The translations under genes and the position numbers were made by a program. A stretch of DNA of 64,000 nucleotides from Macrostomum lignano (Eukaryota). Within the stretch, counting starts at the first letter, position 1. Each line of letters starts with the position of its first letter. The notes under the pieces are model-generated. The model had not been told where the DNA came from. It worked only from the letters and a program-made list of their open reading frames with translations, and did no database searches. The stretch lies in the NCBI GenBank assembly GCA_002269645.1, contig NIVC01001122.1, positions 1 through 64,000 on the forward strand, given 5' to 3'. Shown here piece after piece: positions 27,851 to 57,061 of this stretch.

Positions 27851-29217
27851 TACCCGCCCGATTGATTTGTATGTACATGCACAGTAAACTATTTTTCAGG
27901 ATATCATTTTTCATTCCTTTTATCATTTTGGTTGGGCAAAGTGAGATAGACATAGTCGAAGTGCAGCGTGGACCGAGGGCTCACTTACTTCGTACCCAAG
28001 TTAGATTTACATGTAGTCTAAAGTGAAATTATATTGAAACTGGTAAAGACGAGTTGCCATTCGGAAACTTATTGGCAAAGACCTGTAAATTTGTTTTGTC
28101 AGCAACTGCGAGTAGACGGCAGTTGTCAATGCAGTTTTATTGCACATTTTTAAGTTGACAGGCTGGCATCGGACTCTCCACATGGCTGACCTCTTCTTCT
28201 GAAGTATCAAACAGCATTGCAAATTAGCGAAACAGTTCAATGACTTAAATTTGCTCTGACTTTTAGGGTGCAGAGGTTGTAGAATATTCAAGTGGCCCAA
28301 GATGCCCCTGTGCTTGGGTCTCAGTTCGCTGAGTAAACTGGACAGTAACACAGAAGATCAGTAGAAAGGTGGACAACCTAGGGTACATCTCTTCCAGGCT
28401 ACTGGATTCACAACGTAATCAACTTTTGAACTGCCAAATTCGAAATTGGATTGCACTTATAAGTTTATCAAGTTATTTTTATGAAACGCTAGAGGAGACC
28501 AGCAACCAAGCAAAGTTCTGGTGGAAATTCAGCTGTTCCTGTCTCTTTTCGTGTAACTTTTCTTGACGACATCTGTCATGACAAAACTCCATTCAGCGCC
28601 ATGCAAAAAGCAAATCTTTGCAAAATTCCATTTAGAAAACTCAAATGTATTTTAAAAATTACTGCACCAATATGGTTATTTTCAAGCTTTCTCTATGTAA
28701 AATTGTGAGCGCAGCTGGGGCCAACGCATACTGTTTCGTTTTTAGTTCGTTTACCGGTGACAAACGCGAAGCATGTGCGCATATCTGGATCGCTAGTGCT
28801 GAGTCTCTTATCAAATTCTGCAGCGTTCACATGCCGGAATGCTCTTATGCACTAATTAAATTAATATCCGCTATCCCCAACCCTACTGATCATTTTTCTT
28901 GCCATCAGTAATAGATTACCTGCAAGGATTATACGCTGATCTCGATGGATAATAATCAAGCAAATGAAAGGCAAGTCGAAATCCAACCGATTTCGAGAGG
29001 CTTCTTCACTTCGAGAGACTGCAACGCTTTTACTTTGTCCCTAAGGAGGCGTGTTTCTTAGCATGACATGGCGTCTGAGATCTTGACTCCCTAGCGATTC
29101 GAACTGAGTCGTAGTGCTATAAGCTCGAATGCGGCTTAAAGCCCCCTTACTTAGTTTGTTTTAAGCTTTCTTCTAGACTAGGTAGAATTTTTATAAAGTT
29201 TCTATAGTTTCTAATCA

Positions 29218-29586
29218 TTATTTTTATTGTTATTAGAGGCAGGGGGGGTGTGTGCACCCTGGCGCACTTTAAGCCACATAGGCACACAACCGGCGAGAGG
29301 CATTTCTGCCCATTCCGCCGACTCCCCTGAGCAGGCATACAAGCGCGCGGATACGTACGCAGGCACACACTCACACAGGAGTGTACAGCGGCCCTAACTT
29401 TATATTATCGTTAGGCATGTACACTTCACTGCGCCTTGGGGGGTTGGCTCTAAAGACCGTTAATTGCACGAGCAGAGCCAAGCCGAGATTCCAATTCAGC
29501 CCCAAATTAATGTGACTGCACTTGGAATCGAGCCTGGGTCGCTGGCACACCAGAGCAGCTGCGCTATCGCTGGGCTACGGCCCCAC
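29218..29586 (-). mobile_element. Full-length tRNA-derived SINE (same family as 10033-10392)
   Basis: Near-identical to the 10033 copy; 9-bp TSD TTCTAATCA at 29209-29217 and 29587-29595. Confidence 0.9.
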
Positions 29587-30462
29587 TTCTAATCACGAGG
29601 CATGCAAACTCTGTGTAACTTTGGAGCTTGGCGATCATGGGCAAGAACGTTTGCCGCTGATCTGCTCCGTCGAGTAGCTATGGGTTTCTTTCGATCAAGC
29701 TTGCAAAAATAAGACTCAAGCTCACTGTTAAAGTTACGCTCTTATAGAATAAATTCAGGAATATAATGCATATCAAAGCATTCAGCTCCTTAGATGACGC
29801 TCTGTAAACATTGAAGCCCACGCTTCGAGAATCATAAGAGGAACTTTTTGACTGCCAAAAAAAACCAGATGCCTTTGAATGCAAAAGTATCTATTGGATA
29901 GTAGAACATAGTTTCTTAGCTTTTTCTGCCGACAATGAGCTGTGCTGGAAAGCCAAATCGTACGAGTATCGTTTCTTTTCTTTCTCGCAATACGCTTGTC
30001 CGTTCACTTTTTTACCTTTATTTCGTACTCGTTCCGGGATTTAGTAACCCACAAGCTTCTACGCAAAAAAAGACATAAGGATATGAAGTGTTCTTCCTTG
30101 CATTCCAACACTTTCTTGATCCTCATTCGTGTCCAATGCAGGCAAAGCACAGGCTCAGATTCATATTTTCATTTCAGAATTTATCTGTTACTGTGCTCAG
30201 TCACAAAGCGTCAAGAGGGACTTCAACGATATGCTACATGGTTCTTAAAATTTATTTGTTTGTTTGCTTGGACTTTTAATCTGGGATGTGCCTGTGGCTA
30301 CTTAGTTATTCAAATTGCTGAATAAAGGCCTGAAAAGCGATGAAAAAGCGGACGAGTCATTTGCTATCTATTCAGTTTCAGAAGTGCCTCCCATGGAAAA
30401 GCAGAGCTTCGAGGAAACCTTGGTTTTAGAGTCGCAATTTTGACAGATTTTTTATTCAACTG

Positions 30463-31177
30463 AGTAGAATGCATGAGGGGGCTTCTGGGACAAAATTTTT
30501 CACGTCCTCCATAATCCACCTAAATCCATCCATATTATCCCTGACAGAATCAGAAAAAAGGGGGGTCGCACTCGCTCCGAAAACGTCCTCCATAATCCAC
30601 CTAAATCCATCCATATTATCCCTGACAGAATCTTGAAAAAGGGGAGGGGTCGCACTTGCTTCGAAAACTTCGAACATAATCCTATTAAATCCATCCATAT
30701 TATCCCTGACAGAATCAGAGCATTATCCCTGACAGAATCAGAGCATAACAGTAGGACACCTGCTATGCTCACTGACACCGACATCCACCCATAGCATGTT
30801 CGAAACAATCAGAAAATAATCTGCATTCTTCTCCCCACATTCAATTTGCAAAGCGAAACCAGATCCCAAAGACTTTAAATCATCAGCGCAGGGTCCTTAC
30901 CCTTTGAAAAAAAATTAAATTCTCAATAAAAATGTTTCCAGTTGTCTCTCCGGGTTCTTATTACAAAGCGGACGAGCCTAATTACAAATCCAAGTACCGA
31001 TGCAAACTTGAATGCAGCGAGTACATGAGAAAATATTGGCCCGGCATGGATATCAATGTCCCTAATATTAATCAAGCTCTCCAAAGACTGGTTTCATAAG
31101 TATGGAGTAACCTACGTAAAAGATTACGACAGCTACTATAACTTTGCAGAAATCATTAAGCAATTGCGTTAAAAAAC
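30463..31177 (+). repeat. Left TIR of the Polinton (715 bp, with two extra ~82-bp internal units)
   Basis: Reverse complement of 50411-50960 except for a ~165-bp tandem expansion and a short divergent patch near 31088-31125. Confidence 0.93.
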
Positions 31178-31179
31178 CG

Positions 31180-31270
31180 AAAAACCAAAAGGCCAAAAGG
31201 CCAAAAGGCCAAAAAGGCCAAAAGGCCAAAAGGCCAAAAAGGCCAAAAGGCCAAAAAGGCCAAAAGGCCG
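31180..31270. repeat. (GGCCAAAA[A])n subterminal repeat
   Basis: Direct reading, immediately inside the left TIR. Confidence 0.9.
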
Positions 31271-31513
31271 AAATCTTTTGCATTTTGGCCTTCCCTCGAG
31301 ACGGAATTCTTCCTCGGCTGGGCTCAGTTAAAGTGAAAATCTCTCTCCCCCACGCGCGCTGCGCCCACACACATACACTCCCCTCTCCCCCGCGCACCCG
31401 ACGCCCGCGCCCACAAACTGTCAGAATGGGGTAAGAGATTTTGAGTACACATGCGCGCATTTTTTCATACCACTCTATTCTCTGCAAGCATACTTAAAAG
31501 GGAACGCATTTTC

Positions 31514-32377
31514 TCACATTCTCTCAATGATCAACGTCAATACAAACTCTTCACCGTTGAAATCAACACCCACCCCATCTTCAGTCTCAAACTGTAGCAC
31601 AATCTCGTGAATCTCCTTATTACTCAATACAACTCTTTTCACTGGATTTGGTTTCTCTACCACCATCTGTCCTCCAGCTACAGAGTTGGAGATGTTGTAC
31701 AAAATATTAGTTCGCTTTCCCTTAAATACCCAATCAAGACTGAGATTAGTTCTGATTAGAATATTCAAACCCTTTACAATGTCTGCTATATTGGGTGCTA
31801 AGAACAAACCGCGTACACTTTCCCGGGCCATGATAACGGCCCCCGTCGCTTGAGTGGCGGTCCGCTCCGCGGATTCTGCCTTATAAACTTTCTTCTCGAA
31901 TCCTAATTCCCTATACCAAGTGTCATCTTTAAACTCAACCTCCGCATTTTTGTGAACTTGCATGACCACTCTCATTACAGTGAGATCATAGGATAGTTTG
32001 ACAGGGAACAGTTTTTTATCTGGCTTACTCGCATCAGGTGTCTCAAAATGGCCTCTTTTAGTAAAAACGTTTTCTAGAAAGTAATTGTAGGTATGCACAC
32101 TTTGCGTGCTAACAGGGAATACCACAGGTTCTGCTGCTGCACCTTTCCATTTGTAATAAAACTTATTATTTGCTGCCGACACATTGGGAACGTTTGACCA
32201 ACCAGTGAAGTCGTTAAGATAGACATGATAATTAGCACCTGGATCCAGGCTAATCGCCTGCTCTAATTTTTGAATAAATATCCCGTTTGAGTCATTAATT
32301 CGCCCAGTTATTGTAATAGGAATGCTCTCCTTGGAGTGCGAAATAATATTATTTAGTCTTTCAGCAATCGCTTCCAT
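31514..32377 (-). CDS. Putative minor capsid (penton-like, single jelly-roll) protein, ~287 aa
   Basis: Size, beta-rich pattern and position next to the MCP. Motifs NVS..NNKFYY and C-terminal IHEIVLQFETEDG.GVDFNGEEFVLTL resemble Polinton minor capsid proteins (from memory; no HMM run). Confidence 0.7.
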   Translation of the reverse strand: MEAIAERLNNIISHSKESIPITITGRINDSNGIFIQKLEQAISLDPGANYHVYLNDFTGWSNVPNVSAANNKFYYKWKGAAAEPVVFPVSTQSVHTYNYFLENVFTKRGHFETPDASKPDKKLFPVKLSYDLTVMRVVMQVHKNAEVEFKDDTWYRELGFEKKVYKAESAERTATQATGAVIMARESVRGLFLAPNIADIVKGLNILIRTNLSLDWVFKGKRTNILYNISNSVAGGQMVVEKPNPVKRVVLSNKEIHEIVLQFETEDGVGVDFNGEEFVLTLIIERM

Positions 32378-32398
32378 TTTTCCACCCACAAAAAATAT

Positions 32399-33685
32399 TT
32401 AAACTTTACTGGATGAATTGTTGATCATGTTAAGCTTCACCTTCCTCTCAAATGCATAGATAATGTACAAGTCCACGGGTGTTACGTCAGTCCTCTCAAT
32501 GTTAGTCACGATATTCACAGGGCTGTTATCAGTAGGCATTTGTCTGGCAGACACATCAGCGCCAAACATTGGATATAGAGTTCCATATTGAAGAGCTGTG
32601 ATAGCAATTCCGTTGTTCTCTTTCACAGCCAAGTCGACCAACTCGCTGTAAAATTTGCTAATCTTGTTCTGACTGAAATTTCCATTTTGTGGCAGTGCAG
32701 GGTAAAGATTATCACTGATTTCATGCTGAATGGACCGCACGTCTCCATGCATGTAGCGTATAATGCTATTTGGGTTTCTCATGCTAATAATAATATACCT
32801 TGGATTGCTGCATGATCCCTCTTTGATGCAGATGTTTGTTCTAGTTTCGTTACGCTCATCTCGACACATGTAGGCCGTGTATGCAACATCAATGTCCTTC
32901 TCTATTGCCTTAAGATAATCTGCTTTTAGTGCAGTCTTTGGCTCAATGACTTCCAAATACAGCTCGATTCCGGTTAGTTTCACATCCATCCTAGTGTGGT
33001 CCGCCCCAGTCCACAACACTCTACTGCGATCATCTCTAGTCATCTTAAAGGTGTAGCTAAAGTTACTAGTCAGTCGATTAAATGTATTACAGAATCCACT
33101 CATAAATCTCAGTGGTACAAATACATCAACAGACCGATACAGCGGGTTTTTAGCAGCATCATCAGCACCTTGCAATGCATAGTTGTATCTCTTCTTCCTC
33201 TTTTTATAGCCACTGTCATTGATGTCTCCTTCTTTTTCATCTGCAATAAAACCCGCACCGCTTCCCAACTGAATAAAATCAGGATTCTCGATCAAACAAT
33301 GAGCGTCATAGACAATTCCAAAGTTGGCGATTCGCTCCAACTCAGTGCTCCCATTCGATACACTAAACTCCTTGAACATGTACGCCCAAAAGTTACTGAT
33401 CAGAGCCACATCCGCATCATGCTTGTCAACGTTAGCACGAGCCGCATCCGCACCACCTTTTGTCTTGAATTGAAATGTCATATGGAAGCCGCTCTTAAAA
33501 CTGTGCACACTAACCAAAGACGAACATCCATTGTATGTGAATGTCAGTGTTTGGCCAGGACCAAGATTAGTTTCATTCTGATTTTCCTGACTGGGAACTC
33601 TTACCTGAGTCGCTTTGATTGTGCTATCATCACTCAAAATAGGCTTGTTAATTTTGTAGAAAACTGGTGTCAGTGGGTCGTTCAT
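32399..33685 (-). CDS. Putative major capsid (double jelly-roll/hexon-like) protein, 428 aa
   Basis: Size and beta-rich pattern. NL..GQTLTF, LISNFWAYMF..FSV..G.TELE, VPLRFMSGF and PRYIII segments resemble Polinton MCPs; adjacent to the penton-like gene. Confidence 0.75.
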   Translation of the reverse strand: MNDPLTPVFYKINKPILSDDSTIKATQVRVPSQENQNETNLGPGQTLTFTYNGCSSLVSVHSFKSGFHMTFQFKTKGGADAARANVDKHDADVALISNFWAYMFKEFSVSNGSTELERIANFGIVYDAHCLIENPDFIQLGSGAGFIADEKEGDINDSGYKKRKKRYNYALQGADDAAKNPLYRSVDVFVPLRFMSGFCNTFNRLTSNFSYTFKMTRDDRSRVLWTGADHTRMDVKLTGIELYLEVIEPKTALKADYLKAIEKDIDVAYTAYMCRDERNETRTNICIKEGSCSNPRYIIISMRNPNSIIRYMHGDVRSIQHEISDNLYPALPQNGNFSQNKISKFYSELVDLAVKENNGIAITALQYGTLYPMFGADVSARQMPTDNSPVNIVTNIERTDVTPVDLYIIYAFERKVKLNMINNSSSKV

Positions 33686-33715
33686 TTTTTAACTAAAAAT
33701 AAAATAAAATAAGAA

Positions 33716-34930
33716 ATGAAGCGAAAAAGTACACAGCAGATATCTGAATTGGAGAAGCTAGCACAAGCAGAGAAACGAGTTACCGGGCTAATAAATAAGG
33801 AGCAACAATCCTACAATGAGTTTGTCCAAGCAGCCACCGAATTTCACAAACCCGGATACACAGAAGCGAAGAAAAACCTCGACACTGTGAAGGAAGCAGT
33901 TGATGATATTCAAGAGAGCCACTTGCAAAACACATTGGGTAAAATCCCATCTTCACCAGGACAACCACAGGCTCAGCAACCAGGACAACCAGTGCAGATG
34001 AAAGTGACGGATAACTTTTTTGGCCCCGTAACGGATGATGGAAAATATATATTTGGAATTAGCGCCTGGCGAAAAAATATCACCGGGGAACCGGCGGATT
34101 ACAACATTGAAGTGACGAAGGAAACTATTTCAATCAATAAAGGCGCAGAAACTAAACGAATCCCCTTCACTCAAAGTTTACTCGACTACATGACTAAAAA
34201 TCAGGAAAAAATATCCGAGAAGCAATTAAAGAATTATAGAGATCTGGTTACCTTCGCTTTAGAGAGGGACATAGACATTCTCAAGAACAACGGTGTTTTG
34301 AAAGTTTTACATGAAAACAGGATTGACTTGAACAGGTTTAGAAAATACAAATACTTTAAACAATGGTTTGGTTTGCCGGATCAAGAAGAGGTCATAAGAC
34401 AACAACCACAACAACCACAGCCACAACAGCAGCAACCACAACAGCAGCAACCAAAACAACAACTACAACAACCACAACAGCAGCAACCACAAACACAACC
34501 ACAACCACAACAACCTCCACCGCCACAGCAACAAATCACACCCGAACAAGTACTAGAAGCGCTTGAAAAAGCAGGGCCAAATGAGATTTCCCAGTACAGA
34601 AACCAGCGCCCAGATGAATGGCAACAATTAGAGCGGCTCTCCCCAGAACGAATGAAGCGAATCAATGACAGAGTATTCACACCTCAACAAAGACAAGCGC
34701 CACATGACAGTTCCTCCTCTGACCAATCATTCGAATCACCTCCAAGCTCTTCCGGAAAAGGCATGCCTGAATTCTACAAGCGGTTAGCTGTTCTTCTAGG
34801 AGCGGCAAAGACCGGAATGAAAGACGAGAATAGAAAAGAATTTGTCAACATCCTGGACAAAATGCTTGAGAGAAAATATATCGATAAAAGAGCAAGAGAA
34901 CTTTTGCTTTCACGGTTTAACAAAAAATAA
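33716..34930 (+). CDS. Polinton protein of unknown function with a Q/P-rich tract (404 aa)
   Basis: Long ATG ORF. C-terminal KRLAVLLGAAKTG..E...ILDKMLERKYI resembles a C-terminal motif seen in Maverick proteins (recollection only). Confidence 0.7.
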   Translation: MKRKSTQQISELEKLAQAEKRVTGLINKEQQSYNEFVQAATEFHKPGYTEAKKNLDTVKEAVDDIQESHLQNTLGKIPSSPGQPQAQQPGQPVQMKVTDNFFGPVTDDGKYIFGISAWRKNITGEPADYNIEVTKETISINKGAETKRIPFTQSLLDYMTKNQEKISEKQLKNYRDLVTFALERDIDILKNNGVLKVLHENRIDLNRFRKYKYFKQWFGLPDQEEVIRQQPQQPQPQQQQPQQQQPKQQLQQPQQQQPQTQPQPQQPPPPQQQITPEQVLEALEKAGPNEISQYRNQRPDEWQQLERLSPERMKRINDRVFTPQQRQAPHDSSSSDQSFESPPSSSGKGMPEFYKRLAVLLGAAKTGMKDENRKEFVNILDKMLERKYIDKRARELLLSRFNKK

Positions 34931-34946
34931 ATTTCTATTTAAAAAG

Positions 34947-35336
34947 ATGCCAATTATTTTCGAAAAAGACATTGACAAATACTATGACAAAGAGGAACTT
35001 AATCTCATTAAACGCGGATCTGGACTTTTCCCTGCAGGCCACTATCCAAGAAAAGAACGCTCTGGGAATGGCCTTGCTGATTTGATCGCTCAGGGGGCTA
35101 AGATTTTTAAGGTCATTGGAGAGAACAAAGAGAACATCAAGAACGTTGCCGAAGCGGCTGGCAGTGTAGCCACAGCAGCCAAAAAGATAAAGGATACTGT
35201 AACACCTAAACAAGAGATTAAACCTCCACTGGCCCCGCTGGCCCCGCTGGCCCCAAATCCAGACAGTGTGGACCCTGCAGTCTATGAGAAGATGAGAGCT
35301 AGCATTAAAAAAGGAAGTGGTTTCAAATTTGACTAA
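34947..35336 (+). CDS. Small Polinton protein (129 aa) with GxG motifs and an amphipathic helix
   Basis: ATG in AAAAGATG context; KRGSGL, RSGNGLADLIAQGAKIFKVIG, KKGSGF. Confidence 0.65.
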   Translation: MPIIFEKDIDKYYDKEELNLIKRGSGLFPAGHYPRKERSGNGLADLIAQGAKIFKVIGENKENIKNVAEAAGSVATAAKKIKDTVTPKQEIKPPLAPLAPLAPNPDSVDPAVYEKMRASIKKGSGFKFD

Positions 35337-35342
35337 AGGTAC

Positions 35343-35638
35343 TGTTAGTCTAGGAAAACTGAGTCAAGTCATGTTTGCAAGCGAAGGAGAATACCATTGA
35401 AAGATCTCTACCGAAGTGACGAAAGTATTTATTTGACTACATAACACGAAACCACGTACATTAGTAGACAAACGCCATCCGATTGGCTGGGGGTTAAAAC
35501 CATGCACACTGGCAAGCACAAATGTACACAGGTAGGGGTAAAACGATAGCGCGCAAGAATGATCAGTCACGGGAGGGAGAGAGAGAGAGAGAGAGAGACA
35601 AGTGAAACAACATGAAAAACCAAAGTACAACCCCAACA
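35343..35638 (-). repeat. 3' LTR (296 bp)
   Basis: No difference from 39616-39911 found by eye; purine tract GGGGGGAGCAG immediately precedes it on the minus strand. Confidence 0.95.
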
Positions 35639-35691
35639 CTGCTCCCCCCAAAAGCAGCAAAACAAAAAACAAAAGAAACCAAGACCTGTCC

Positions 35692-37920
35692 TTAGACCTT
35701 ATAACAAACAGGTTTACGAGGCCGCAAATCATACGAGCTGTGGGGCTGGAGAGTCTTATCTCCAGAACTCAGCGGGGAGTCACAGTCAGTCGCCTCAGGT
35801 TCACGCAGCTCCGAGTCAGAGCCAGCCTTGGCACCCTGAATCGATAGCCCAGCCTGATCCTCGGATCCAGCCGCCTCGGTCAGCCGCCGATCGGCCTCCG
35901 CCTCCGGGCGGCAGCTCCATTGGTTTGCGTGCGCCATCCGCAGTCCACCGTCTGGTAGGTCAGCTGAGGTCACCAGAGCTGTGTTCCGGCCGTGCTGCAC
36001 GATGAACTTGGCCGGAACCGGAGCCGTGCCAGGCCGAGCCCTCAGCCAGATGGAGTCACCCACCTGCTCGGTCATCGTCAGCGGATGGCGCAGCCGGCGT
36101 CCCCACATGAGAATGTCCGGCGAGCTGGAACGATTCCCGCTAGGCCTGCTGGTGCGAATGGTTAGGAGCAATTTCTGCAGGAACTGGTCAAATGGGACCA
36201 CTTTCGTCCACGTCTTCAGCCCGCCTTTGAGACTCCTCACCAACCGCTCAGCCTGCCCGTTCGATGCCGGATGGTACGGTGGGGTGTGCATCTCCTGGCA
36301 GCCGACACTGTTCAGCCACTGCGAGACTCTTTCCGACCTGAACTCAGGCGCATTATCCGACACTAGCGTCCGTGGCACTCCATTTCTGGCGAACACCGCT
36401 CTCAGCACTCTCAGCACACTGCCCGCAGACCTGTCTGGGACCTGGACAGCTTCTGGCCAACCCGAGTATGCATCAGACAGCAACAGTAGCAAGCCCACTC
36501 CTGGCACCTCACAGTGGTCCATGTGGACCCGGGACCACGGCTCGCTCTCGGATGGCCAGATGTCAATTTTCCGCTGAACCACCGGCCGTCTTTCAGCGCA
36601 CAGCTGACACCGCTCAACAAACTGACGGACATCGCGATCCAGTCCAGGCCACCAGAACTCCTTAGACACATGGGCCTTCGTATTTTCCGCGCTCGGGTGC
36701 ACCTCATCATGCGCGGTCTCCAAAATGCGCCGCCGGAGAATGGTCGGAGGCACCACCCTGGTACCGTGGATGACCAGCCCGTTCTCCACAGACAACGCTT
36801 CCCGACACGCTTTGTACGGCCGCTCCAGCTGAGAGACCTGACCCCACCGGCCTGTCCTGATTCTCTGCTGGAGTCTTTGAAGCAGTGAACACCGGGAAGT
36901 ACTTTCTCTCAGCTCCTCCACGGTAACCAAGCCTCCGTCAGTGATCAACTCAGTCTGGTGAACCGACTCCGTCTCAGGATCGAGGTTTTCAAAGCTCAGC
37001 CTTGATAGAGCGTCAGCATCCTGCATCTTCTTTCCCGGCACATATTCAATCTCGTAATCATAAGCCGATAGCCGCAGAGCCCACCGGGTTAGTCTGGCAG
37101 AAACAGTCTTTGGAAGATTCTTGCAAGGATTCAGAATAAACTTCAAAGGCTCGTGATCGGTCTGCAGAATGAATTTCTTCCCTAGCAACATTTTCCGAGC
37201 TCGTTCAACCGCCCAAACAATAGCCAGCGCTTCTCTCTCGATGTTTGAATAGTTGGTTTCTGCCTGTGTGAGCGCCCTGGACATGAACATGACGGGATGT
37301 CCAGATTGGACCAGCACCGCGCCCAAGGACTTCTCGCTCGCATCAACTCGAAGACAGACAGGCGCGGAAACATCAAACGGCTTGATGCACGGGTTTGAGG
37401 CCAGACTCCTTTTGACCTCCGAAAATGCCGCCTCAGCCACCGCGTTCCATTCAAAGACCCGGTCACCGCGGCGAAGCTCCTGAAGAGGCCGACATTTCTC
37501 AGAAAAGTTTGGAACCAGCCGTCCATAAAATTGAGCCAGTCCTAGAAATCTCTCCAAATCTTTCTTGGTCTTCGGCACCTCGACATCCATCACACGTTTC
37601 ACCATGCCCGGATCGGGTTTTATTCCTTCATCATCAATAATGTGACCAAGAAACTTCAGGCTGTTGGCTTCCATCACGCACTTCGCCTCGTTGATCTTGA
37701 CATTTGCGGCCTTTAACTTGTTGAACACCTGCTCCCTAATTTTCTGCAACTCTGCCCGGCTTGCAGCACCGATCAGCACATCGTCCTGATATACTATGAC
37801 ACATGGATGGTCTCCCAGGAGCTTTTCCATCACACGTTGAAAAACAGATGGCGACACCTTAATGCCATACGGCAACCGGTTAAACCTGTAGCAACCAAAC
37901 GGAGTGTTTATGGTGGTCAC
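35692..37920 (-). CDS. pol: Gypsy pol: RT, RNase H, integrase
   Basis: RLPYG, YQDD, VDASEKSLGAVL, NYSNIEREALA, TDHEPL, ADALSR, HHCC zinc finger, D..SDNAPEF..SNGQAER. Joined to the upstream ORF by a single -1 frameshift near 37963. Confidence 0.95.
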   Translation of the reverse strand: MTTINTPFGCYRFNRLPYGIKVSPSVFQRVMEKLLGDHPCVIVYQDDVLIGAASRAELQKIREQVFNKLKAANVKINEAKCVMEANSLKFLGHIIDDEGIKPDPGMVKRVMDVEVPKTKKDLERFLGLAQFYGRLVPNFSEKCRPLQELRRGDRVFEWNAVAEAAFSEVKRSLASNPCIKPFDVSAPVCLRVDASEKSLGAVLVQSGHPVMFMSRALTQAETNYSNIEREALAIVWAVERARKMLLGKKFILQTDHEPLKFILNPCKNLPKTVSARLTRWALRLSAYDYEIEYVPGKKMQDADALSRLSFENLDPETESVHQTELITDGGLVTVEELRESTSRCSLLQRLQQRIRTGRWGQVSQLERPYKACREALSVENGLVIHGTRVVPPTILRRRILETAHDEVHPSAENTKAHVSKEFWWPGLDRDVRQFVERCQLCAERRPVVQRKIDIWPSESEPWSRVHMDHCEVPGVGLLLLLSDAYSGWPEAVQVPDRSAGSVLRVLRAVFARNGVPRTLVSDNAPEFRSERVSQWLNSVGCQEMHTPPYHPASNGQAERLVRSLKGGLKTWTKVVPFDQFLQKLLLTIRTSRPSGNRSSSPDILMWGRRLRHPLTMTEQVGDSIWLRARPGTAPVPAKFIVQHGRNTALVTSADLPDGGLRMAHANQWSCRPEAEADRRLTEAAGSEDQAGLSIQGAKAGSDSELREPEATDCDSPLSSGDKTLQPHSSYDLRPRKPVCYKV

Positions 37921-47529: not shown

Positions 47530-48567
47530 TTAATTAATTTCTGTGTCAGCTGGTATCACTAGGAGTTCAGCTCTAGTGAATGACCGCGTGGGGGATTTAG
47601 GGTTAAAGGCTTGAGATAAAAAGTAATACTCTCCAGAGTCGGATGTAAAATGTCTGTCTATTTTATGTACATCAAGGCTGAAGTATGGATCTGTAGCTCT
47701 TCTTTTGGTGTCTTTCTCTAGCTCTCCAGGTAGATATAAAAAGCGTAGAAACTCAGAGTTTGTCAGTATGTATGGTGATTCAACTCCTGGAAGCTGAGGG
47801 TAGTTCGAGGTGTGTTTTGTGTTGTGTGTGTTGTGTGGGGTTGTAGTGTTGTTGTCTGTTCTTTGAGTTGCCTTAAGTTTGACAGTGTCTTGTTTAATTG
47901 CATGGGACGGTTTCAATCCAGTCATACGTGTGACTTCATTGTTCAGTTGCTCTATAACAATGGGGAGTCTTTCTGTCCACTTGGTATAGTATTGCCCCGC
48001 ACTCAGTTTGAGTTCTTGCGCTGTCTGCTTTGTGAATAGTCTCTTGGCTAGAGTTAGATTGAATCTTTCCACAAAAGCCTGGTCTCTGTGCAAGTTTGTT
48101 CTGCCATAGCGAATCTCTGTGTTTTTCTTTTCCATAAGGGATTTCACTACACCCATGAATTCCTTACCCGGGTCGGTCATAAAGATTTGGGGGTATGTGA
48201 GCGGAGAGTTTTTATAAATATCTTGCAGTGCGCTGGCAACAACCTCTGACTTCTTCGTCTTGAGTGGGCGAGCTTCCTTATATCTGGAAGCAATGTCTAT
48301 TACTGTGAGAGCATACTTGTAGCCTGAGTCATTGGGGAGAAACAAAAGATCTGCTTGGTGCGCTTCATTAGGTTTATAGATGCTAAAGTGAGGTCTTGTA
48401 AATTTTACTGGTGGGAAATAGACTTGGTAGACTGCTTGCTTAGAGAGCCACTTTTCTACTTTAGCTTTTGGTTCCTTACTCAGCTCCATGAGTTTACTAA
48501 CGGCATTTTTGCCTACAAAGAAACCTTTGTCGCTGTAGTAGAGTTTTTTAAGTTTCTGATCTGTCAT
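47530..48567 (-). CDS. rve-family DDE integrase (345 aa)
   Basis: HQADL (D), VIDIASRY, TDPGKEF (D), VERFNLTL (E). Confidence 0.95.
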   Translation of the reverse strand: MTDQKLKKLYYSDKGFFVGKNAVSKLMELSKEPKAKVEKWLSKQAVYQVYFPPVKFTRPHFSIYKPNEAHQADLLFLPNDSGYKYALTVIDIASRYKEARPLKTKKSEVVASALQDIYKNSPLTYPQIFMTDPGKEFMGVVKSLMEKKNTEIRYGRTNLHRDQAFVERFNLTLAKRLFTKQTAQELKLSAGQYYTKWTERLPIVIEQLNNEVTRMTGLKPSHAIKQDTVKLKATQRTDNNTTTPHNTHNTKHTSNYPQLPGVESPYILTNSEFLRFLYLPGELEKDTKRRATDPYFSLDVHKIDRHFTSDSGEYYFLSQAFNPKSPTRSFTRAELLVIPADTEIN

Positions 48568-48597
48568 TTATTTAAAAAGAAAATTTTAAATAAAATA

Positions 48598-49086
48598 ATG
48601 CAGCGCTCTGGTGGTAAGTTAGATTCACATGGACTGATAGAAAAGCTTCCTCATCCGAACAAAGGCTGGACACTTCCCGGCTATAAATATTGCGGGCCTT
48701 TGAATCCACTTGAAATACAGCTAGATAAAAACAATAATCCACATCCTGGGCATGAGCCTGTGAACGAGCTAGACTCTGTCTGCATGTGGCACGACGTTAA
48801 GTATAGAGATTTTCCTGAGGAGAAGAATCGCTGGGACAAAGAAATGCTCAGGAGACTCGACAATATAGGGGCTTCAAGCGGATTTCGTGAGTCGATCGCT
48901 CGGAAGCTAGTTAAAGCTGTTATTTTTGGTAAAACAAAGTTGGGGTTGGGGGTGTACGCCGAGGGCGGGTGTTTGGGGAGAGAAGGTGGGTGCACGGGGA
49001 GAGAGGGAGCAGGGTTTATTTTGTGTGCTCCAAACGAGGTATTAGGAAGACTGCTGAAAGAGCTGGGGGTAGAGAGAGGCGCTTGA
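48598..49086 (+). CDS. Parvovirus VP1u-like phospholipase A2 (162 aa)
   Basis: LPGYKYCGP Ca-loop-like motif, PVNELDSVCMWHDVKY with the catalytic HD dyad, and downstream D (RWDKEM). Confidence 0.85.
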   Translation: MQRSGGKLDSHGLIEKLPHPNKGWTLPGYKYCGPLNPLEIQLDKNNNPHPGHEPVNELDSVCMWHDVKYRDFPEEKNRWDKEMLRRLDNIGASSGFRESIARKLVKAVIFGKTKLGLGVYAEGGCLGREGGCTGREGAGFILCAPNEVLGRLLKELGVERGA

Positions 49087-49234
49087 GTCGGGAAGGGCTT
49101 AACTATTATTCTCAGCCCTAGCCAAACGCAACAGCTGCATTTTGAAAAGTTGAGAAGCAGAAGGGGGGGTAACTGCTATTTTCTGAGGGAGCGCAAAGTT
49201 CCACGCGTGCATTCCTTTCCGCTTTGACAACCGG

Positions 49235-49814
49235 ATGGAAGGAAGCGGGTGGAGGGAATCGATCGCTCGGAAGCTAGTTAAAGCAAGCAAGAAAATTCAG
49301 CTTATTTCGCCCGCAAACGTTCTTCGTCACGCACGATACTGCACTGTTGTGGCTGCTGATTTCATTATGTTGTAAGTTTATTCATTTTTTTACTTTCTGA
49401 TAATCCTGTGGTAAGAATTGAAACATCTCTTATTTTGATTAAATCTTTGTTTTTAGTTCACAAAAAATTACGTTCTACTGGACCGACCTAGAAAATCTCC
49501 ATGGTCGCCTTGTTGAAGGATTAGATGCCAACGAACTGGCATCAGAGAGAATTCAAGAAGTTCTCCACAATTTATTCAATAAAAAAGTTGAGAACCAGCG
49601 AATTCGTTCCAGAGCGGCCGAGGAGACCCAGGTTCGCAACTATGCCATGAGAACCGAAATGGTGTTTGACGAACTTCGCCGATCATTTGTTGCTGATGAA
49701 GTTTCACTTCTTAGTTATCAACCATTTTTTCCAGGATTTTATCAATGTAAGCTACTCATAGTAGTCTTCGAAACACTTTCCTGGATCTCCAGGATTTTTT
49801 TCTGGATTTTTTAA
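49235..49814 (+). CDS. Predicted two-exon ORFan inside the Polinton: join(49235..49371,49457..49814), 164 aa
   Basis: ATG, GTAAGT donor at 49372, T-rich ...tttgtttttag acceptor at 49456. The phases join in frame to a stop-free stretch of ~120 codons lacking an early ATG. Confidence 0.6.
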
Positions 49815-50160
49815 ACTCGTGCCAATTCCTGACAATACAGGAATTCCTGAAAATACAGGAAAGTCTTTTACTGGATTTTTTTCCATGATTTTATCAATGT
49901 AAGCTACTCATAGTAGTCTTCTAAACACTTTCCTGGATCTCCAGGATTTTTTTCCAGGATTTTTTTTAAACTCGTGCCAATTCCTGACAATACAGGAATT
50001 CCTGACAATACAGGAAAGTCTTTTACTGGATTTTTTTCCATGATTTTATCAATGTAAGCTACTCATAGTAGTCTTCTAAACACTTTCCTGGATCTCCAGG
50101 ATTTTTTTAAACTCGTGCCAATTCCTGACAATACAGGAATTCCTGACAATACAGGAAAGT
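49737..50160. repeat. ~152-155-bp tandem repeat (about 3 units) containing short palindromes
   Basis: atcaatgtaagctac at 49741, 49893 and 50048; internal TCCTGGA-tc-TCCAGGA and TTCCTG-acaata-CAGGAA. Confidence 0.92.
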
Positions 50161-50410
50161 GCTGTTCACAAAATGACCGGGAGGAAAATCAATATTATTC
50201 TGGATCCGAAGAATATCGATTTTGGATTGTGCGAGGATCTACAATATCTTGTTCTTTCTCTACCTTCATTCATTTCCAGCCTTGCAACTAGCTTGCACGT
50301 CGCGGAAGAAAATTCTCAGCCGGATAGCCCTGCACACTCAGTGTCTGCTCTTTCCTCCTTATTTCCTCCTGTTTTATGTAAATATACTTGCGAATAAATG
50401 AACTCAGTAT

Positions 50411-50960
50411 GTTTTTTAACGCAATTGCTTAATGATTTCTGCAAAGTTATAGTAGCTGTCGTAATCGTTAATGACTACTCCATACTTATGAAACCAGTGT
50501 CTTTGGAGAGCTTGATTAATATTAGGGACATTGATATCCATGCCGGGCCAATATTTTCTCATGTACTCGCTGCATTCAAGTTTGCATCGGTACTTGGATT
50601 TGTAATTAGGCTCGTCCGCTTTGTAATAAGAACCCGGAGAGACAACTGGAAACATTTTTATTGAGAATTTAATTTTTTTTTCAAAGGGTAAGGACCCTGC
50701 GCTGATGATTTAAAGTCTTTGGGATCTGGTTTCGCTTTGCAAATTGAATGTGGGGAGAAGAATGCAGATTATTTTCTGATTGTTTCGAACATGCTATGGG
50801 TGGATGTCGGTGTCAGTGAGCATAGCAGGTGTCCTACTGTTATGCTCTGATTCTGTCAGGGATAATGCTCTGATTCTGTCAGGGATAATATGGATGGATT
50901 TAGGTGGATTATGGAGGACGTGAAAAATTTTGTCCCAGAAGCCCCCTCATGCATTCTACT
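50411..50960 (-). repeat. Right TIR of the Polinton (550 bp)
   Basis: Inverted match to 30463-31177. Confidence 0.93.
50416..50655 (-). CDS. TIR-encoded 79-aa Tyr/aromatic-rich ORFan (left-TIR copy 30932-31099 truncated to 55 aa)
   Basis: AAAAATG start like other element genes; stop falls 5 bp from the inner TIR edge. Confidence 0.5.
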   Translation of the reverse strand: MFPVVSPGSYYKADEPNYKSKYRCKLECSEYMRKYWPGMDINVPNINQALQRHWFHKYGVVINDYDSYYNFAEIIKQLR

Positions 50961-51789
50961 CAACTGCCGACCAACTTTAGAAAAAAGTTTAACCAGTCAG
51001 TCTCTTGGGCGCTATGATGCCTGACTTTAGTGCGTTTACTGCCGTCTGACAGCAATGCTGCTTGAAAAAGTGAACTTTCGCATGCGCGAAGCTTTTGTTT
51101 CAGACGCTGCATTTTAATTTAATCAATACGCGCTTGTACTTTTCCGCCAGCAGAGTTTAGCATTCCACTTCAGCTTGGCCGCATCCTACAATTTAATCTA
51201 GTAGGTAATCACTTAGCTTGAATGAAAAACCCACTAGGGGCAGCGTAAATATAATTAGGATGAGACTATACCAGACTGTATTTCAACTGCAAAGGTATTT
51301 TTCTTACTTATACATAGTTTTGGCATTCATACGTCTCTGGATTTTTATGTTTGCCAGCTTAAACGCTTGCAATTTGCTTATTGCATAGAGGAATTACATG
51401 CACAGTGATTTTGTTACGTTCGCGCACTCGTCATCAAGGCATTTAGCACTCAAAATTCATCAAAATTCATTTTCACACTGAAATGGGCACTTAGTTCGTA
51501 AAAGTCAGTGACAATGCACAGGCGTCAAGAGGCGATAAAATTTCACTGAAACGTCGCTTGTATGCCGGCCTCCAAACAAAGTTACATTCTATTTCGACAG
51601 AGATTTGTGAGCATGGATACAATCTTAAAAGTTAATCTATTTTTAAATTTTAGTTTTCACTGTACTGCACAACTGTACAATTGTTGCACACTAAGAGTTG
51701 ATGTGAGGGCTGAGAAGAAGATCTGATTGAAGTAGACGATTAATTGCTGGAAGAAGATGGAATCGATGAAGTTGAAGCAGGATTTGAGG

Positions 51790-51980: not shown

Positions 51981-53702
51981 ACACATTTAACCATGCTTAC
52001 ATACGTACCTCGCTGCTTTGGTGGACATGCAATTGATGATTAGGTCCCAGATGGTTGGTCAACTTGAGATGGCTCAAGTTGATTAACTGACATTGACTCG
52101 ATCCTGTTTTAAATTTTACTCTTACGCTCGTATGTTCATCGATAGGTTCTTTTTTTTCTATTTGTCGAAATAGAATGTAACTTTGTTTCTTTTGAATTTC
52201 AAAGCTTAACGTGTGCGTCACTCAGGTACAATTTTGGCCACAGACAGTCTGAATTGAATTGTCTGTGGCCAAATCATCTGTTTCAATCTGTTTGAAACAG
52301 ATGATCTGTCTGTCATCTGCTTCAATAGAAAGGGACTTTGTTTGAATTGAACTTCCGCAACCGCTGATATTTCTTAAAGTGTTTGAACTGAAGTTCCGCT
52401 TGTTTCTTTTGAACAAGACTTTGTTCAAGATAGGAGGTAAAATGGTGTACCTGGTCCTTGTTACATTAAGCTGTAAGTGAAGTTTCGGTCTTGCTAAGGA
52501 CCTTGCAGTAGTTTTCGGCATTGTGAACTGTGGTCTTTTGAAAGCGAGCCGCAAAAACATACTCGTAAGCATTAAAGGATTAAGCATTATGCCGAAGCAT
52601 TAAAGTTGTGTCATGGAAGATCGGTAGGTGAGGAAACTCGTGGTGATGCGCCTGACGATGTCCGATTCAGCCGGAACGCGTTGCGAATAGTAGTTTTTGT
52701 CAGTTTTTAATTTATTCCTCTACTCTACGAGGTGGATTTCTACAGTTTCAAACAAACTTTACCGTAAATTTAAGGTACTGCGCCCTCTAGTACCTTTGAT
52801 CTTTGGTGCAGCAGTGCACTCTGATTCTAAAATTACCTTTCTTTTTCCCAGCGTGCATTGTTGTATGTAGACTTAAATTTAATGGGAGTCTCAATAGCAG
52901 GATTGAATCGGAAGTGAAAAATGTTTTAATCGAAGCAGTTTATTCAACGCTACCTCTTTCATTAGGAATTGGATTCTAACAACTGATTGATCTGGAGGCA
53001 GACTAGGCATTGTTTTCGTGAGAATTTATTGTTCTCACAGGCGAAAAATTGAAATCGCTATTCCACTCGAAACCTTGCATTTACTTTCCTTTCCTCCACT
53101 TTTATCCCGGATTTCTTTATGAGGCTCACTGCTTTGTGCACCTCTGTTTTCAATGCAGTGTTTGATTGCAACTCCAGTGCGGTAGTGAATCCCAAACCCA
53201 TTGATCAAGCATCTGACTTGATCTTGCAGCTAAAAGCTCTTTGATATAGAATTGCTTCTACATGTATAGGGGACGGTGATTTGTGTATTTTTGCATGCTC
53301 GTTTCTGAGTTCAATCTGTCATTTGTAGGTTTTTTAATCCCTGCGCGCAGACGATTGGACATCAAGAGTAGTTCAGTAGTCCTTGTTTTATTCCATGTAT
53401 GGCTTGCGACAGCGCTGTGCCGCCGTGCTAATTAAAAGTATAACTTGCCCATAATTAACTTATTTTCTAGCACATTACAAATATAATATATTTGACTTTT
53501 AATTAATCTTTTACGGCATCTTTAATCCTTTAAATTGCCAACATGAGGTCGTTACAGGGCCTGCATATTCTGGCTATTTAGATTAGAACACTGGAGCAGA
53601 TGCCTAAAGATCGCACTCTTCCGCGCGTTCGACCTAAAGGCGTCCTGCAGACGGTGTTTGAAGATATCAGCTAAAAAAGCGCATCTTAGTGGAACTACTC
53701 AC

Positions 53703-54165
53703 CAACGTATCTCTCCACTGTGGAGGTGACCAGCAGCCACACGGACACCATTCTGGACGAATAAGAGAAGAACAGGCGCAGCTGGCAGGCTATCTGGGTG
53801 TACAGCCAGTCGCGGGACCAGTCCGGCAGCAGGGTCTGCTTCTGCAGCCAGTCTGGCGCTACGTAGAACAGCAGCACCAGCAGGTCGGCCCCAGCCAGCG
53901 CGGTGAAGTAAGCTTTAGCCGACTGGTTGGCGGTCTGGCGCCTGGTGAACACCAGGATGCAGAGGCCGTTGCCAATGCAGCCAATCAGCAGCACGAAAGG
54001 CGTCACCGCAGTGAAGATGTACTGGCTCAGTGCAGCGCTGAGCGCCGTCGGATGCACCAGCGGGGCTATCGTAGCGTTCGAACTGTTGTAGAGTCCATCG
54101 CCCTGTGCGCTGGAGTTTCCGCACTGCAGTATGCTGCAGAGAAAATCCTTGTCCAGCACTTGCAT
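53703..54165 (-). CDS. Neuropeptide/FMRFamide-receptor-like GPCR, exon 1 (N-terminus to TM3); full protein ~440 aa
   Basis: N-glycosylation sites, GCIGN (TM1), LAGADLLVL (TM2), C..., VERYV then G|GTGAGT donor. Splicing to exon 2 gives ERYVGVRNPL. Confidence 0.88.
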
Positions 54166-55878
54166 GACGTTGTTGTTGACGTACTGACTGTCTAAGAATT
54201 TCCTTTTTTTATTACTTCGAAGTAGATTTGGCTTTGATGCGCAAGGGACGGGTTGCTTACGAGGTATTAGCCTGACTTGGCCGGCTTGGAGTTGAGTAAT
54301 CCGATTTCACAGCTCCGCTGATAAAGCCTTTAGATCTCCGCTTCTGATTGGCCGAGACTGCTCCCTGGCCATGGGCTGAGTTGCTGCTGTCATTCATAAC
54401 ATATTTTAAGATGTAACAAAAGGCTCGTATTCTTTATTCGATTCATTTCAGATCAGGAGATTAAATTTAATATGGTTGGGAGTATTGAGACAAAAAAAAT
54501 TGTACCTGCACAAGTCCGCCTTTGGTAAACAAAATTTTTATTCCATGCTGTAGGAACTGCTTCTCATGAGCTCTTAGAGTTGAAATAGTGAGCTGTGGGA
54601 CCTCGGCTTCCGCTCAGTGGGTGTACGAGAGGAAGCTGAAAGCGATTTGGAATCATCTGATCGATTAATCAGAAAGTTGCTCGCTTAGTATACATGTGCG
54701 GTGTACATGTACTTGCTCAGCGTCCTGAGGCTTGAGGCTTGTCTGGGTAGCCAGATAAAGTGCTCACTTCGCACCTCAATTCATCTCGAATAAGCGTACA
54801 GGTGTTTATGTTCGATTCTGAACAAGTGCACAGGTGTTTATGTTAAAGCGCACTGAGCATTTCTATTCTTGGAAATGAGCTCAGATTTTACTGCACAGAG
54901 TAGCTCTCCTACTCACTTTTAAACCTTTCAGCATAATTGAATTGCTATTAAATTTAATTTAATTTGAGATTTGAGGCTCACACCTGCTCACCAAAAACAG
55001 CTCTCTGTACCGACAAGGTAGTGAGAGTGGTGGCCGGGACGCCGGCGTCAGCCAGCAAGCAGTCGATGAAACGTTGAGCGTCAGCGTCAGCAGCAGAACC
55101 CCCTAAATCGGCAGACCTTCTCGAATGAGTTTCGTTGACCTGGCCATACATGCACAGTGTAGGGTGTCTCACTAGAAAATGTGCCTCATAATCACGAGCT
55201 AAATTAGAAATCTCTGTTTGTCGGGCTTCTCGAAATGCTAAAACTTTTTGATCTCTTAATCTTTTAATTTCAGTTTAAAAGACAGTTTAAAAGCGTCACA
55301 AAGACTTTCCGAATGAGCAGCTTTAGGTGTAGTTTACCCTTGATTAAAAACCATAGTAGCCTCAAAGCTTGTGGAGTAATAAGCATGGCGAGGTCACCTT
55401 ATGAGAAGGTGGAGAGTAAAATAAAAAGTAGCAACCCATTTAGGCTGCTGCTACGACAGGGACAACTTCCAAAAATATCCATGAACGCGACTGGAAAAGA
55501 CGTCTCCTTCTATTTAACGCCTTGTCGTGCACATCAGAGATTGGATTGCTTTGGTTTCCAGGACTGTCGCAGTGAGCTCGCTCAGATGCTGGCACTAGTT
55601 ATGCAGCAGAGTTGCATCATCAGTGCAATGCAGCAGATTTTCTACCAATCATTAAAAAGCGGTCTGTTGTGTTTCGGAATGAAATTTGGTGCACGCAAAT
55701 GGGCTTAAACCTCTATTTGACTGCAGTTTTAGGCGCTTATATCCGTTCCCGACGGATAGGCCGAAAACAGCCATAGACAGTTTACAAATTTACGATCGTA
55801 AATGCTGCTACTACCACCGTTCCTGACGTGACGTGAAAGTCAGGAATCGAATGTTGTTTAAGCGAGTATAAGTATAAG

Positions 55879-55967: not shown

Positions 55968-57061
55968 AATATTTAATTGCCGCAGCCAGCGGGAGGAAAT
56001 GAGACTAAGCCTCGGCCATAGACTATTGACTATAAAGCTCTATAAAGCCGAATATTCTGTGTAAGATCAGAAAAGCTTCAGTTGTGTGTAGCTTGGTACC
56101 GAATATGGGTGACATCTCTGCTGCTGTCGTTGTTGAAGCCCCGGATATGGAGTTTTCGCCGGACTACTGGATTTCATCCTGAAGCCCGGTGAGTGAGTCT
56201 CGGGTGACTGCGGCGCAGGTGCAAGTGCCCTTGCCTCCTCTGGAGGTGCAGGCTCCTACGAAGAAAATGCGCATAGAGGCTTTTGGAGACAGCAACAAAG
56301 TGGTGTTCCACTTTGATTACTTTCATCCTCCCTCCTTCGCTGACTCCCTCTGACACCCTCTGATACAAGACTGCTTATAACTGTTCGTTGTTAGATTTTT
56401 CACTTTCGATCCCCATTTGTTGCTATTCAGTGTTGTGAAACCGGTCTTTGTGTTTCTACCATAGACAATTATTTCTTGGCCTCCAAGAAACGCCTGATGG
56501 GAGTCTCAACTCATTTGAAAGAATGTTTTTTAGCCATAGACAATTATTTCTTGGAGTCCAAGAAATGAAAATACACAGAGGAGATAGGCAGCTGGCCGGG
56601 CCAAAGCGGGGATTAAATTCTTGCGATATATTTGCAGTAGTAGAATAATCTAAGTTGCTTGACGAAACACAGATCGAGTGCAGTAAGTTAAATATTGTGA
56701 ATATTGAACTTCACTGGTGCATTACATGGCTGAGTAAGTGGAGAGACTTAAGGGGCGAGGCAAGGCTAGCGCAATGATGTACACTGAATTGCACAGAGTA
56801 CGCATTGGTTTACAGAGTACATAGAAACTTGGAATTGAATAAAGTTAAGTGACTAAGTTAGCAGAATGAAGTCTAATTGAATAAAGCTACGAGCCGTAAG
56901 CAACAAACCGCACACAGTTACCCATGCTAACAAACCAACGAACCGTCACTTTAGTTCCTGCCTATGGTCTCGCTTAGATTTAGTGTCTGTTCGCTAATTT
57001 AATTCATTTATACGGACTGCTTTATACGAGCATTTTACTTTTTGTTTAGTTTTGACTAGTT

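Follow-up and report, generated by a model that had tools for sequence, protein, structure and literature searches.

Polintons (Mavericks, adintoviruses) measure 13-25 kb and carry terminal inverted repeats (TIRs) of 100-1500 bp and target-site duplications (TSDs) of 5-8 bp (bioRxiv 10.1101/2023.08.22.554363). Their protein-primed strand-displacement replication, packaging, maturation and integrase-made TSDs are regarded as established (PMC4028283; PMC11161782; PMC8502044), and purifying selection on virion genes of vertebrate Mavericks has been read as evidence of particles (PMC8097293). Particle formation by animal Polintons has nevertheless been an open question since their capsid genes were recognised, particles not having been observed (PMC4028283; PMC8097293). 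In planarian genomes, expansions of DNA/Maverick repeats are described (bioRxiv 10.64898/2025.12.11.693146). Here, a 64,000-nucleotide stretch of Macrostomum lignano DNA (contig NIVC01001122.1, positions 1 to 64,000; hereafter the window) was analyzed. The element at 30463-50960 is a Polinton: without the Ty3/Gypsy retrotransposon nested in it the length is 15.9 kb, and the TIRs of 715 and 550 nt and the 6-bp TSD likewise lie within the above ranges. It is probably a recently integrated provirus of an adintovirus-type Polinton family, polymorphic at its site and later invaded by the Gypsy element, and the family probably spread as linear protein-primed DNA, via particles and by re-integration with its own integrase.

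The Polinton begins with AGTAG at 30463 and closes with CTACT at 50960, and a copy of CAACTG abuts each end (30457..30462 and 50961..50966). A search with both flanks detected the locus in two further contigs of this genome (C3408 and C1449), which hold one CAACTG each and no Polinton; therefore the Polinton insertion made the TSD, and the assembly is polymorphic at this site. The left TIR (30463..31177, forward strand, 715 nt) includes 2.6 units of an 84-nt array, and the right TIR (50411..50960, reverse strand, 550 nt) lacks 165 nt of this array, the further differences being small indels; the 540 matching columns contain no mismatch, or five when other gap costs are chosen. These results agree with an earlier note on this DNA, which had claimed exact ends with a 6-bp TSD, near-identical TIRs and a recent integration, and had proposed the search for an unoccupied allele. 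The same note's structurally complete Polinton of about 20.5 kb had to be revised: the Polinton proper, after subtraction of the Gypsy element at 35343-39911, is 15,924 bp long and interrupted. In C1449, the empty allele is accompanied by ~4.4 kb of other sequence at a distance of ~100 bp from the site (~190290-194660), and the insertion locus is present in three versions in the assembly.

The gene content was analyzed by a Pfam scan of 27 proteins, 20 of them within the element. Matches above cut-off were obtained for an A32/FtsK-type packaging ATPase with Walker motifs (40161..40961, forward strand, 266 aa; PF04665), an adenain-like maturation protease with its catalytic motifs (42600..43001, reverse strand, 133 aa; PF00770), an rve (retrovirus-like) integrase with DDE motifs (47530..48567, reverse strand, 345 aa; PF00665) and a 151-aa protein with an adenovirus pX/mu-like core-protein motif (47058..47513, reverse strand; PF05829, E 8e-7). 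A 162-aa protein carries a parvovirus-type phospholipase A2 (PLA2) domain, likewise above cut-off (48598..49086, forward strand; PF08398, E 1e-13), and PolB, with Exo and Pol motifs and a piece matching PF03175, extends over four frames (43094..46933, reverse strand). Hence the protein-primed PolB, integrase, ATPase, protease and PLA2 named in the earlier note each have their Pfam match, that of PolB below cut-off, and its two capsid-like open reading frames (ORFs) are both open. The first of these, with 428 aa (32399..33685, reverse strand), is a double jelly-roll major capsid protein (MCP) according to its AlphaFold2 model, which was obtained from a 91-row alignment (90 relatives) with a predicted local distance difference test (pLDDT) value of 93.7 and a predicted template-modelling (TM) score of 0.91; the alignment was needed, given that single-sequence folding reached a pLDDT of 31 only. 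Foldseek placed the model next to iridovirus, Sputnik, PBCV-1 and mavirus capsids (E ~1e-18 to 1e-14, at most 11% identity), and the comparison with PBCV-1 gave a Z score of 25.0, the highest value reached, and a root-mean-square deviation of 3.6 over 345 aligned residues. The jelly-roll fold that the note had wanted checked for this frame is thus predicted with high model confidence. Moreover, 68 of the 91 alignment members matched PF21738; for the window MCP alone the double jelly-roll domain stayed below cut-off. The closest MCP outside the family is 77% identical and unnamed, the viral structure library BFVD holds no match above 13% identity, and in scans of IMG/VR and of JGI metagenome contigs, which reach close relatives only, none of the 18 and 246 pattern matches, respectively, was an MCP relative.

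The 287-aa neighbour of the MCP (31514..32377, reverse strand) is likely the single jelly-roll penton, or minor capsid protein; the other defining Polinton features considered, namely PolB, rve integrase, packaging ATPase, adenain-like protease, double jelly-roll MCP and the ranges of size, TIR and TSD, are all present. It has 13 unnamed relatives with 39-64% identity, and among 14 Polinton-like IMG/VR contigs, 6 have ORFs matched by its profile (E 1e-23 to 4e-6). Its structural look-alikes in the Atlas are viral and carry no family name, with TM scores of 0.78-0.79 for a stored homologue; the first comparison with such look-alikes scored under the recognition threshold of the tool. No Pfam or PDB match was found for this protein, and a PDB sequence search with the MCP and penton profiles gave nothing usable.

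Genome-wide searches revealed that the window copy belongs to a large family. All 98 MCP matches scored among 673 candidates were full length and at least 97% identical, 95 of them without stops, and all 117 integrase matches scored among 1676 candidates were at least 89% identical, 105 of them without stops. The two lists have 31 elements in common and together contain at least 184 elements on 170 contigs; a mark-recapture estimate, which includes haplotype duplicates and assumes independence, amounts to ~360. The copy count proposed in the earlier note thus gave a family, in which the window copy is one among hundreds. For further comparison, 80 other Polinton stretches of at most 20 kb were used (60 picked through the capsid, 18 through the integrase and 2 because of odd orientation); in 31 of them both ends are in view, with a perfect 6-bp TSD in 22 (21 sites). 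In C3589, C2829, C1098, C2787 and C5061, Polintons are nested in, or adjoin, other Polintons. The capsid region was present in 20 sequencing runs from 7 studies, one of them under a second organism label; in that run the family was seen at 97-99% with a depth pattern fitting low-coverage DNA. Element depth was far above that of the host flank in all runs, as expected of a high-copy repeat, contig depths not being copy numbers. No RNA run is listed among those with the element; in one that was guessed to be RNA, coverage extended over genes, TIR and Gypsy alike, which has no bearing on expression either way.

Regarding novelty, no publication on Macrostomum Polintons or Mavericks was found in a search limited to literature other than subscription papers and preprint supplements, and a 2025 paper on Macrostomum LTR elements (PMC12801592) contains neither term. 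The text and the examined part of the supplement of the adintovirus survey mention no flatworm or Macrostomum (PMC8502044). The suggestion that the lineage may be undescribed in this host is therefore upheld as to close catalogued relatives and print, Repbase having been outside the search, and the family may well have been annotated as a repeat before. Taken together, the sequences point to a Polinton family that is new, young and unusually rich in copies.

The genes of this family appear to have been under selection. The ratio of nonsynonymous to synonymous variation (pN/pS) was calculated for up to 57 copies from single-base codon changes only and without a tree, after four second contigs of counted sites were dropped. 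For variants common to at least 3 copies it was 0.02-0.20 in each of the 16 gene parts, none of which had a shared stop: 0.07 for the MCP, 0.15 for the penton candidate, 0.13 for the protease, 0.05 for the ATPase, 0.16 for PLA2, 0.20 for the pX-like protein, 0.06 for the integrase, 0.02-0.17 for the PolB pieces, and 0.14, 0.05 and 0.18 for the 404-aa ORF, the 129-aa ORF and the 5' part of the 272-aa ORF, respectively. These low values indicate that the virion genes were under selection during lineage divergence. Singleton variants gave 0.24-1.12, i.e., 2- to 20-fold above the shared ones and near 1 for ATPase and pX, as might be expected if the family had recently entered the germ line from outside in several lineages and had since then moved only as an intracellular self-synthesizing transposon, the capsid being intact for lack of time. 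The similarity of the copies (94-99%) and the existence of integrated half-genomes without capsid or without polymerase, described below, would also suit such a history. We consider it unlikely, since the shared variants, at the 1-5% divergence that marks the scale of the family's radiation, are constrained in every virion gene and include no stop in the 16 gene parts, and since capsid-less derivatives are no majority: 11 of 18 integrase-chosen copies reach the MCP, and most of the others stop at a contig end. A pattern in which the capsid is kept intact as PolB and integrase decay was rejected as a bias of choice, because it reverses in integrase-chosen copies: private indels in the capsid amount to 0.0-0.08 per kb in capsid-chosen and 2.2-2.5 per kb in integrase-chosen copies, and the integrase shows the reverse.

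The same bias has to be considered for PolB, the only Polinton gene that the earlier note had described as broken. The window PolB is 34-50% identical to Polinton-like PolBs in IMG/VR and matches PF03175 below cut-off (E 1e-5 over 63 aa). In its first piece, a Cys and a His were seen by eye at positions plausible for the N-terminal OTU domain that PolBs of both adintovirus classes carry. A putative HNH insert matches Endonuclease_7 below cut-off (E 1e-4), and above cut-off in a relative with 39% identity; such inserts are known from PolBs of several lineages (PMC11161782). In comparison with 50 copies, its private changes are 3 frame-changing indels and 2 substitutions in 3.8 kb. Between two contigs that represent a single allele elsewhere, there are 17 gaps and 4 substitutions over 11.7 kb, which corresponds to ~0.7 indel per kb and contig, and the private indel rate in PolB of the other copies, 0.69 per kb, equals this assembly noise. 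Because private indels match the noise between contigs of one allele, the frameshifts of the window PolB are likely assembly errors. In short-read contigs from 4 runs, neither the PolB breaks nor the break in the Gypsy reverse transcriptase (RT) appear as the family form, although such contigs drop rare variants and cannot clear the window copy. The split of PolB in 50 of 52 copies, the presence of LTR elements in two copies (the window copy and, a different element, C860) and many internal deletions might alternatively reflect an extinct burst, in which most copies including that of the window are truly decayed and nothing is mobile. This is very improbable in our judgement: private indels are about as frequent as between two assemblies of one allele and lie wherever a copy was not chosen for, substitution stops are rare, and the window site is polymorphic with matching TIRs.

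The retrotransposon nested in the window copy (35343..39911, reverse strand, 4.57 kb) has long terminal repeats (LTRs) at 35343-35638 and 39616-39911 that are 296 nt long, 100% identical and bounded by TG..CA, with the TSD GGTAC at 35338-35342 and 39912-39916. Pfam recognized gag zinc knuckle, aspartic protease, RT, RNase H and integrase in two frames (37917-39593 and 35692-38016), so that the LTR type, short TSD and domain order of Ty3/Gypsy elements are all present; its pol is frameshifted. Eight other full-length copies with 98-99% identity were found among 33 scored of 227 candidates. The element lies between the 129-aa ORF and the ATPase, which are co-oriented, and since it makes the genome 29% longer and separates these genes, the window copy was likely disabled or handicapped. 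None of the 80 other Polinton stretches carries this element, and a targeting of Polintons by it is unsupported, none of five other Gypsy copies checked being located in a Polinton. In C5149 (12344-13764), a Polinton end adjoins the interior of the same Gypsy family, therefore the two families nest both ways; C321 (1380-2798) holds the same truncated Gypsy match. The element in C860 is a different LTR retrotransposon of 4.65 kb within PolB of a Polinton copy, with 315-nt LTRs that are 99.7% alike and a 1325-aa frame.

Comparison of the copies further shows that they mix gene alleles, to which assembly chimerism may contribute. Two ATPase alleles (~79% and 96-99%; 17 of 70 copies under 88%) and two forms of the 404-aa ORF (~75% and 91-100%; 34 of 66 copies under 88%) are found in each of the four possible combinations in copies with a TSD. 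Furthermore, C819, C3110 and C274 carry a second capsid module (~76-80% at the DNA level, with an MCP of 82% amino acid identity in C819 and C3110) in copies that are otherwise 96-99% like that of the window, and for each window gene the nearest twin, up to 99.6-99.8% identical, is found in a different copy.

Two sites harbor fold-back half-genomes. At the first (C1652 ~28600-39930; the same site in C276 and C3945), an 11.3-kb palindromic Polinton with the perfect TSD CATCTA consists of two 4.75-kb arms, 99.6-99.9% alike and each with TIR, penton gene, MCP gene and two ORFs, around one ATPase gene; it has no protease, PolB, pX, integrase or PLA2 gene. Between haplotypes its centre differs by 0.7% and its arms by ~0.1%. 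At the second (C975 122373-133902), an 11.5-kb mirror palindrome with the perfect TSD CCTATA lacks capsid, ATPase and protease; its 5.4-kb arms each contain PLA2, integrase, pX and a portion of PolB. The fold-back junctions overlap by 10 nt and 1 nt. Both sites were chosen from paired matches and do not constitute a frequency sample; a capsid-arm palindrome as a multi-site family was rejected, given that C1652, C276 and C3945 all represent the first site, whereas C5149 and C738 proved to be ordinary copies. In four more copies, the TIR is extended to a smaller degree into the penton gene, and in ordinary copies the TIR length varies from ~260 to 1124 nt. Adenoviruses and parvoviruses form fold-back or snap-back defective genomes; these, too, are palindromic half-genomes with two copies of one end, whereas the palindromes of the window family are integrated, inherited and flanked by TSDs. 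A literature search on palindromic or non-autonomous Polintons and adenovirus panhandle defects, conducted outside subscription papers, returned no fold-back Polinton.

Both palindromes fit copying from one end onto the other, in a free molecule or in place. It is also conceivable that they, and the gene mosaics, are assembly artefacts or products of in-place repair between TIRs that tell nothing of a free replicating form, an explanation to which we give appreciable weight, short of preferring it. Long near-identical repeats are difficult to assemble, and the centre of the first palindrome has opposite orientations in different contigs. At the second site, the outer 355 nt contain 26 of the 27 differences between the arms, as if the original terminus had been retained and the inside copied, and in-place repair would leave the same trace. 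Contrarily, both palindromes end exactly at the termini, with direct 6-bp TSDs and unlike flanks, one of them is found in three contigs and two haplotypes, the junctions are sharp, and a further opposite-strand joint occurs at window positions 41687/41807 in a short-read contig. These points speak against an artefact and do not separate in-place repair from the integration of a ready-made palindrome. The joint at 41687/41807, in run X1 at about single-copy depth, is possibly a third fold-back variant.

Based on what is established for Polintons and adenoviruses, the following life cycle may be proposed for the provirus family that we favor. The Polinton would replicate as linear DNA, PolB initiating by protein priming at the TIRs and displacing one strand, and the displaced strand would pair its ends to a panhandle, which would keep the TIRs alike. 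Run-on copying or a template switch could extend one end over the other and give rise to the 11-kb palindromes, which as a record of terminal-repeat extension would be fossil evidence for strand-displacement replication. The ATPase would package the DNA into shells of MCP and penton that the protease matures, PLA2 and the pX-like protein might aid entry, and the integrase would re-integrate the DNA and thereby make the 6-bp TSD. Several observations weigh against this interpretation. Particles, free linear DNA and transcripts are predicted, the likely penton is assigned by its adjacency to the MCP, profile matches and look-alikes, and PolB is in a single frame in just 2 of the 52 capsid-chosen copies containing it. 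The selection seen in shared variants may have acted in a virus population before germ-line entry, with intracellular spread thereafter. Nine of the 31 two-ended copies have no TSD, and hence there may be chimeras among the assembled copies, and assembly may account for part of the mosaic pattern. In many TSD-bearing copies the TIRs are 5-10% or more apart, a difference that would not result from strict end-to-end copying at each integration; in one 320-nt part, TIR divergence averages 5.6% within and 7.2% between copies. The further-reaching proposal of a working animal virus today, with hundreds of recombining proviruses, particles, germ-line reinfection, swaps of capsid and ATPase modules and defective-interfering fold-back half-genomes integrated in trans and inherited, is put forward tentatively and is rather doubtful. 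Nevertheless, the young age of the family, its hundreds of near-identical copies, the polymorphic insertions and the constraint on virion genes make this likely culturable flatworm a good place for a particle search. The family could amount to about half a percent of the genome and sits at many contig ends.

The remaining features of the element include four ORFs on the forward strand: a 404-aa ORF with a Gln/Pro-rich tract (33716..34930; at least two alleles in the family), a 129-aa ORF with an amphipathic stretch and two GSG motifs (34947..35336), a 272-aa coiled-coil ORF (40978..41796) and a 260-aa ORF with a hydrophobic hairpin (41813..42595). The 129-aa product is a candidate protease-processed virion protein, and together with the pX-like protein a candidate counterpart of the GasderminX and cupiennin-like accessory proteins of Beta adintoviruses. 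A fusogen was not detected in the family. The 260-aa ORF has homologues in 2 of the 14 Polinton-like IMG/VR contigs, L090 and L091 (phmmer, E 1e-12), so that of about seven ORFs without relatives counted in the earlier note this one and 47058-47513, with its Adeno_PX domain, have to be removed. L090 and L091 are compact contigs with the same gene repertoire in different order and have fibre-like ORFs after the protease, which the window family lacks. A 21-nt tandem array 5' of the ATPase (39953..40120, forward strand) is the site of a fold-back junction elsewhere in the family. A subterminal region with a 155-nt array (49100..50410) is present in a minority of copies, 49200-49650 having a full match in only 3 of the 80 other stretches. 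Within the right TIR lies an open 79-aa ORF (50416-50655), of which the left TIR holds a truncated copy (30932-31099); it is found in nearly all copies, is constrained (shared pN/pS 0.12) and has no family match. That all ORFs except PolB are open, as the earlier note had it, is true of the capsid candidates and not of the Gypsy pol or the left-TIR ORF copy. Elsewhere in the window, rhodopsin-family G-protein-coupled receptor frames of the host (6941-8041, with adenosine-receptor-like best matches, and 53695-54306), a piggyBac-type transposase frame (56998-58023; PF13843, E 2e-40) and a 360-nt dispersed repeat, 97-98% alike (10033-10392, 29227-29587 and 1552-1716; one copy ~0.9 kb left of the element), were recognized. 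For a flanking receptor gene, the top named match came from Macrostomum lignano at 54%, ahead of the second at 44%, which makes a free-living flatworm of this kinship the likely host.

With respect to described systems, the family resembles planarian Mavericks in being expanded in a flatworm genome, whereas those were reported for triclads at the level of repeat classes, the passages on them giving no analysis of single genes or capsids (bioRxiv 10.64898/2025.12.11.693146). As with Ngaro retroelements in mavirus-like EMALEs (PMC8547959), a retroelement is nested between genes of an endogenous DNA virus that encodes a capsid, and nesting is reciprocal; the window Gypsy differs in showing no preference for its host element, with none of five other copies in a Polinton. 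Adintoviruses share protein-primed PolB, rve integrase, adenain, FtsK-type ATPase, hexon, PLA2 and pX-like genes, the likely penton gene, inverted terminal repeats and an animal host (PMC8502044). However, Alpha adintoviruses have a fused PLA2X, whereas PLA2 (48598-49086) and the pX-like protein (47058-47513) are here encoded by separate ORFs on opposite strands, and the window PolB matches PF03175 weakly, which in the wording of the adintovirus survey would be Beta-like, yet PLA2, a trait of the Alpha module, is present (PMC8502044). Judged from its sequence, the element thus appears to fit neither class cleanly. Nematode Polintons are alike in the ranges of size, TIR and TSD, strain-specific insertions, gene exchange among residents and possibly the HNH insert, which there occurs in one PolB class (pPolB2); in the window family, by contrast, no fusogen was detected, exchange concerns the ATPase, capsid module and accessory genes and not PolB, and copies are far more numerous and closer (MCP at least 97% identical as compared to a median of 92%) (bioRxiv 10.1101/2023.08.22.554363). 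Finally, vertebrate Mavericks have in common with this family AGT-type ends, a 6-bp TSD and purifying selection on virion genes, but their ends are (AGT)2 or (AG)3 instead of AGTAGA, and they reach a median of 8 copies with at most 38 intact, as compared to the at least 184 elements found here (PMC8097293).

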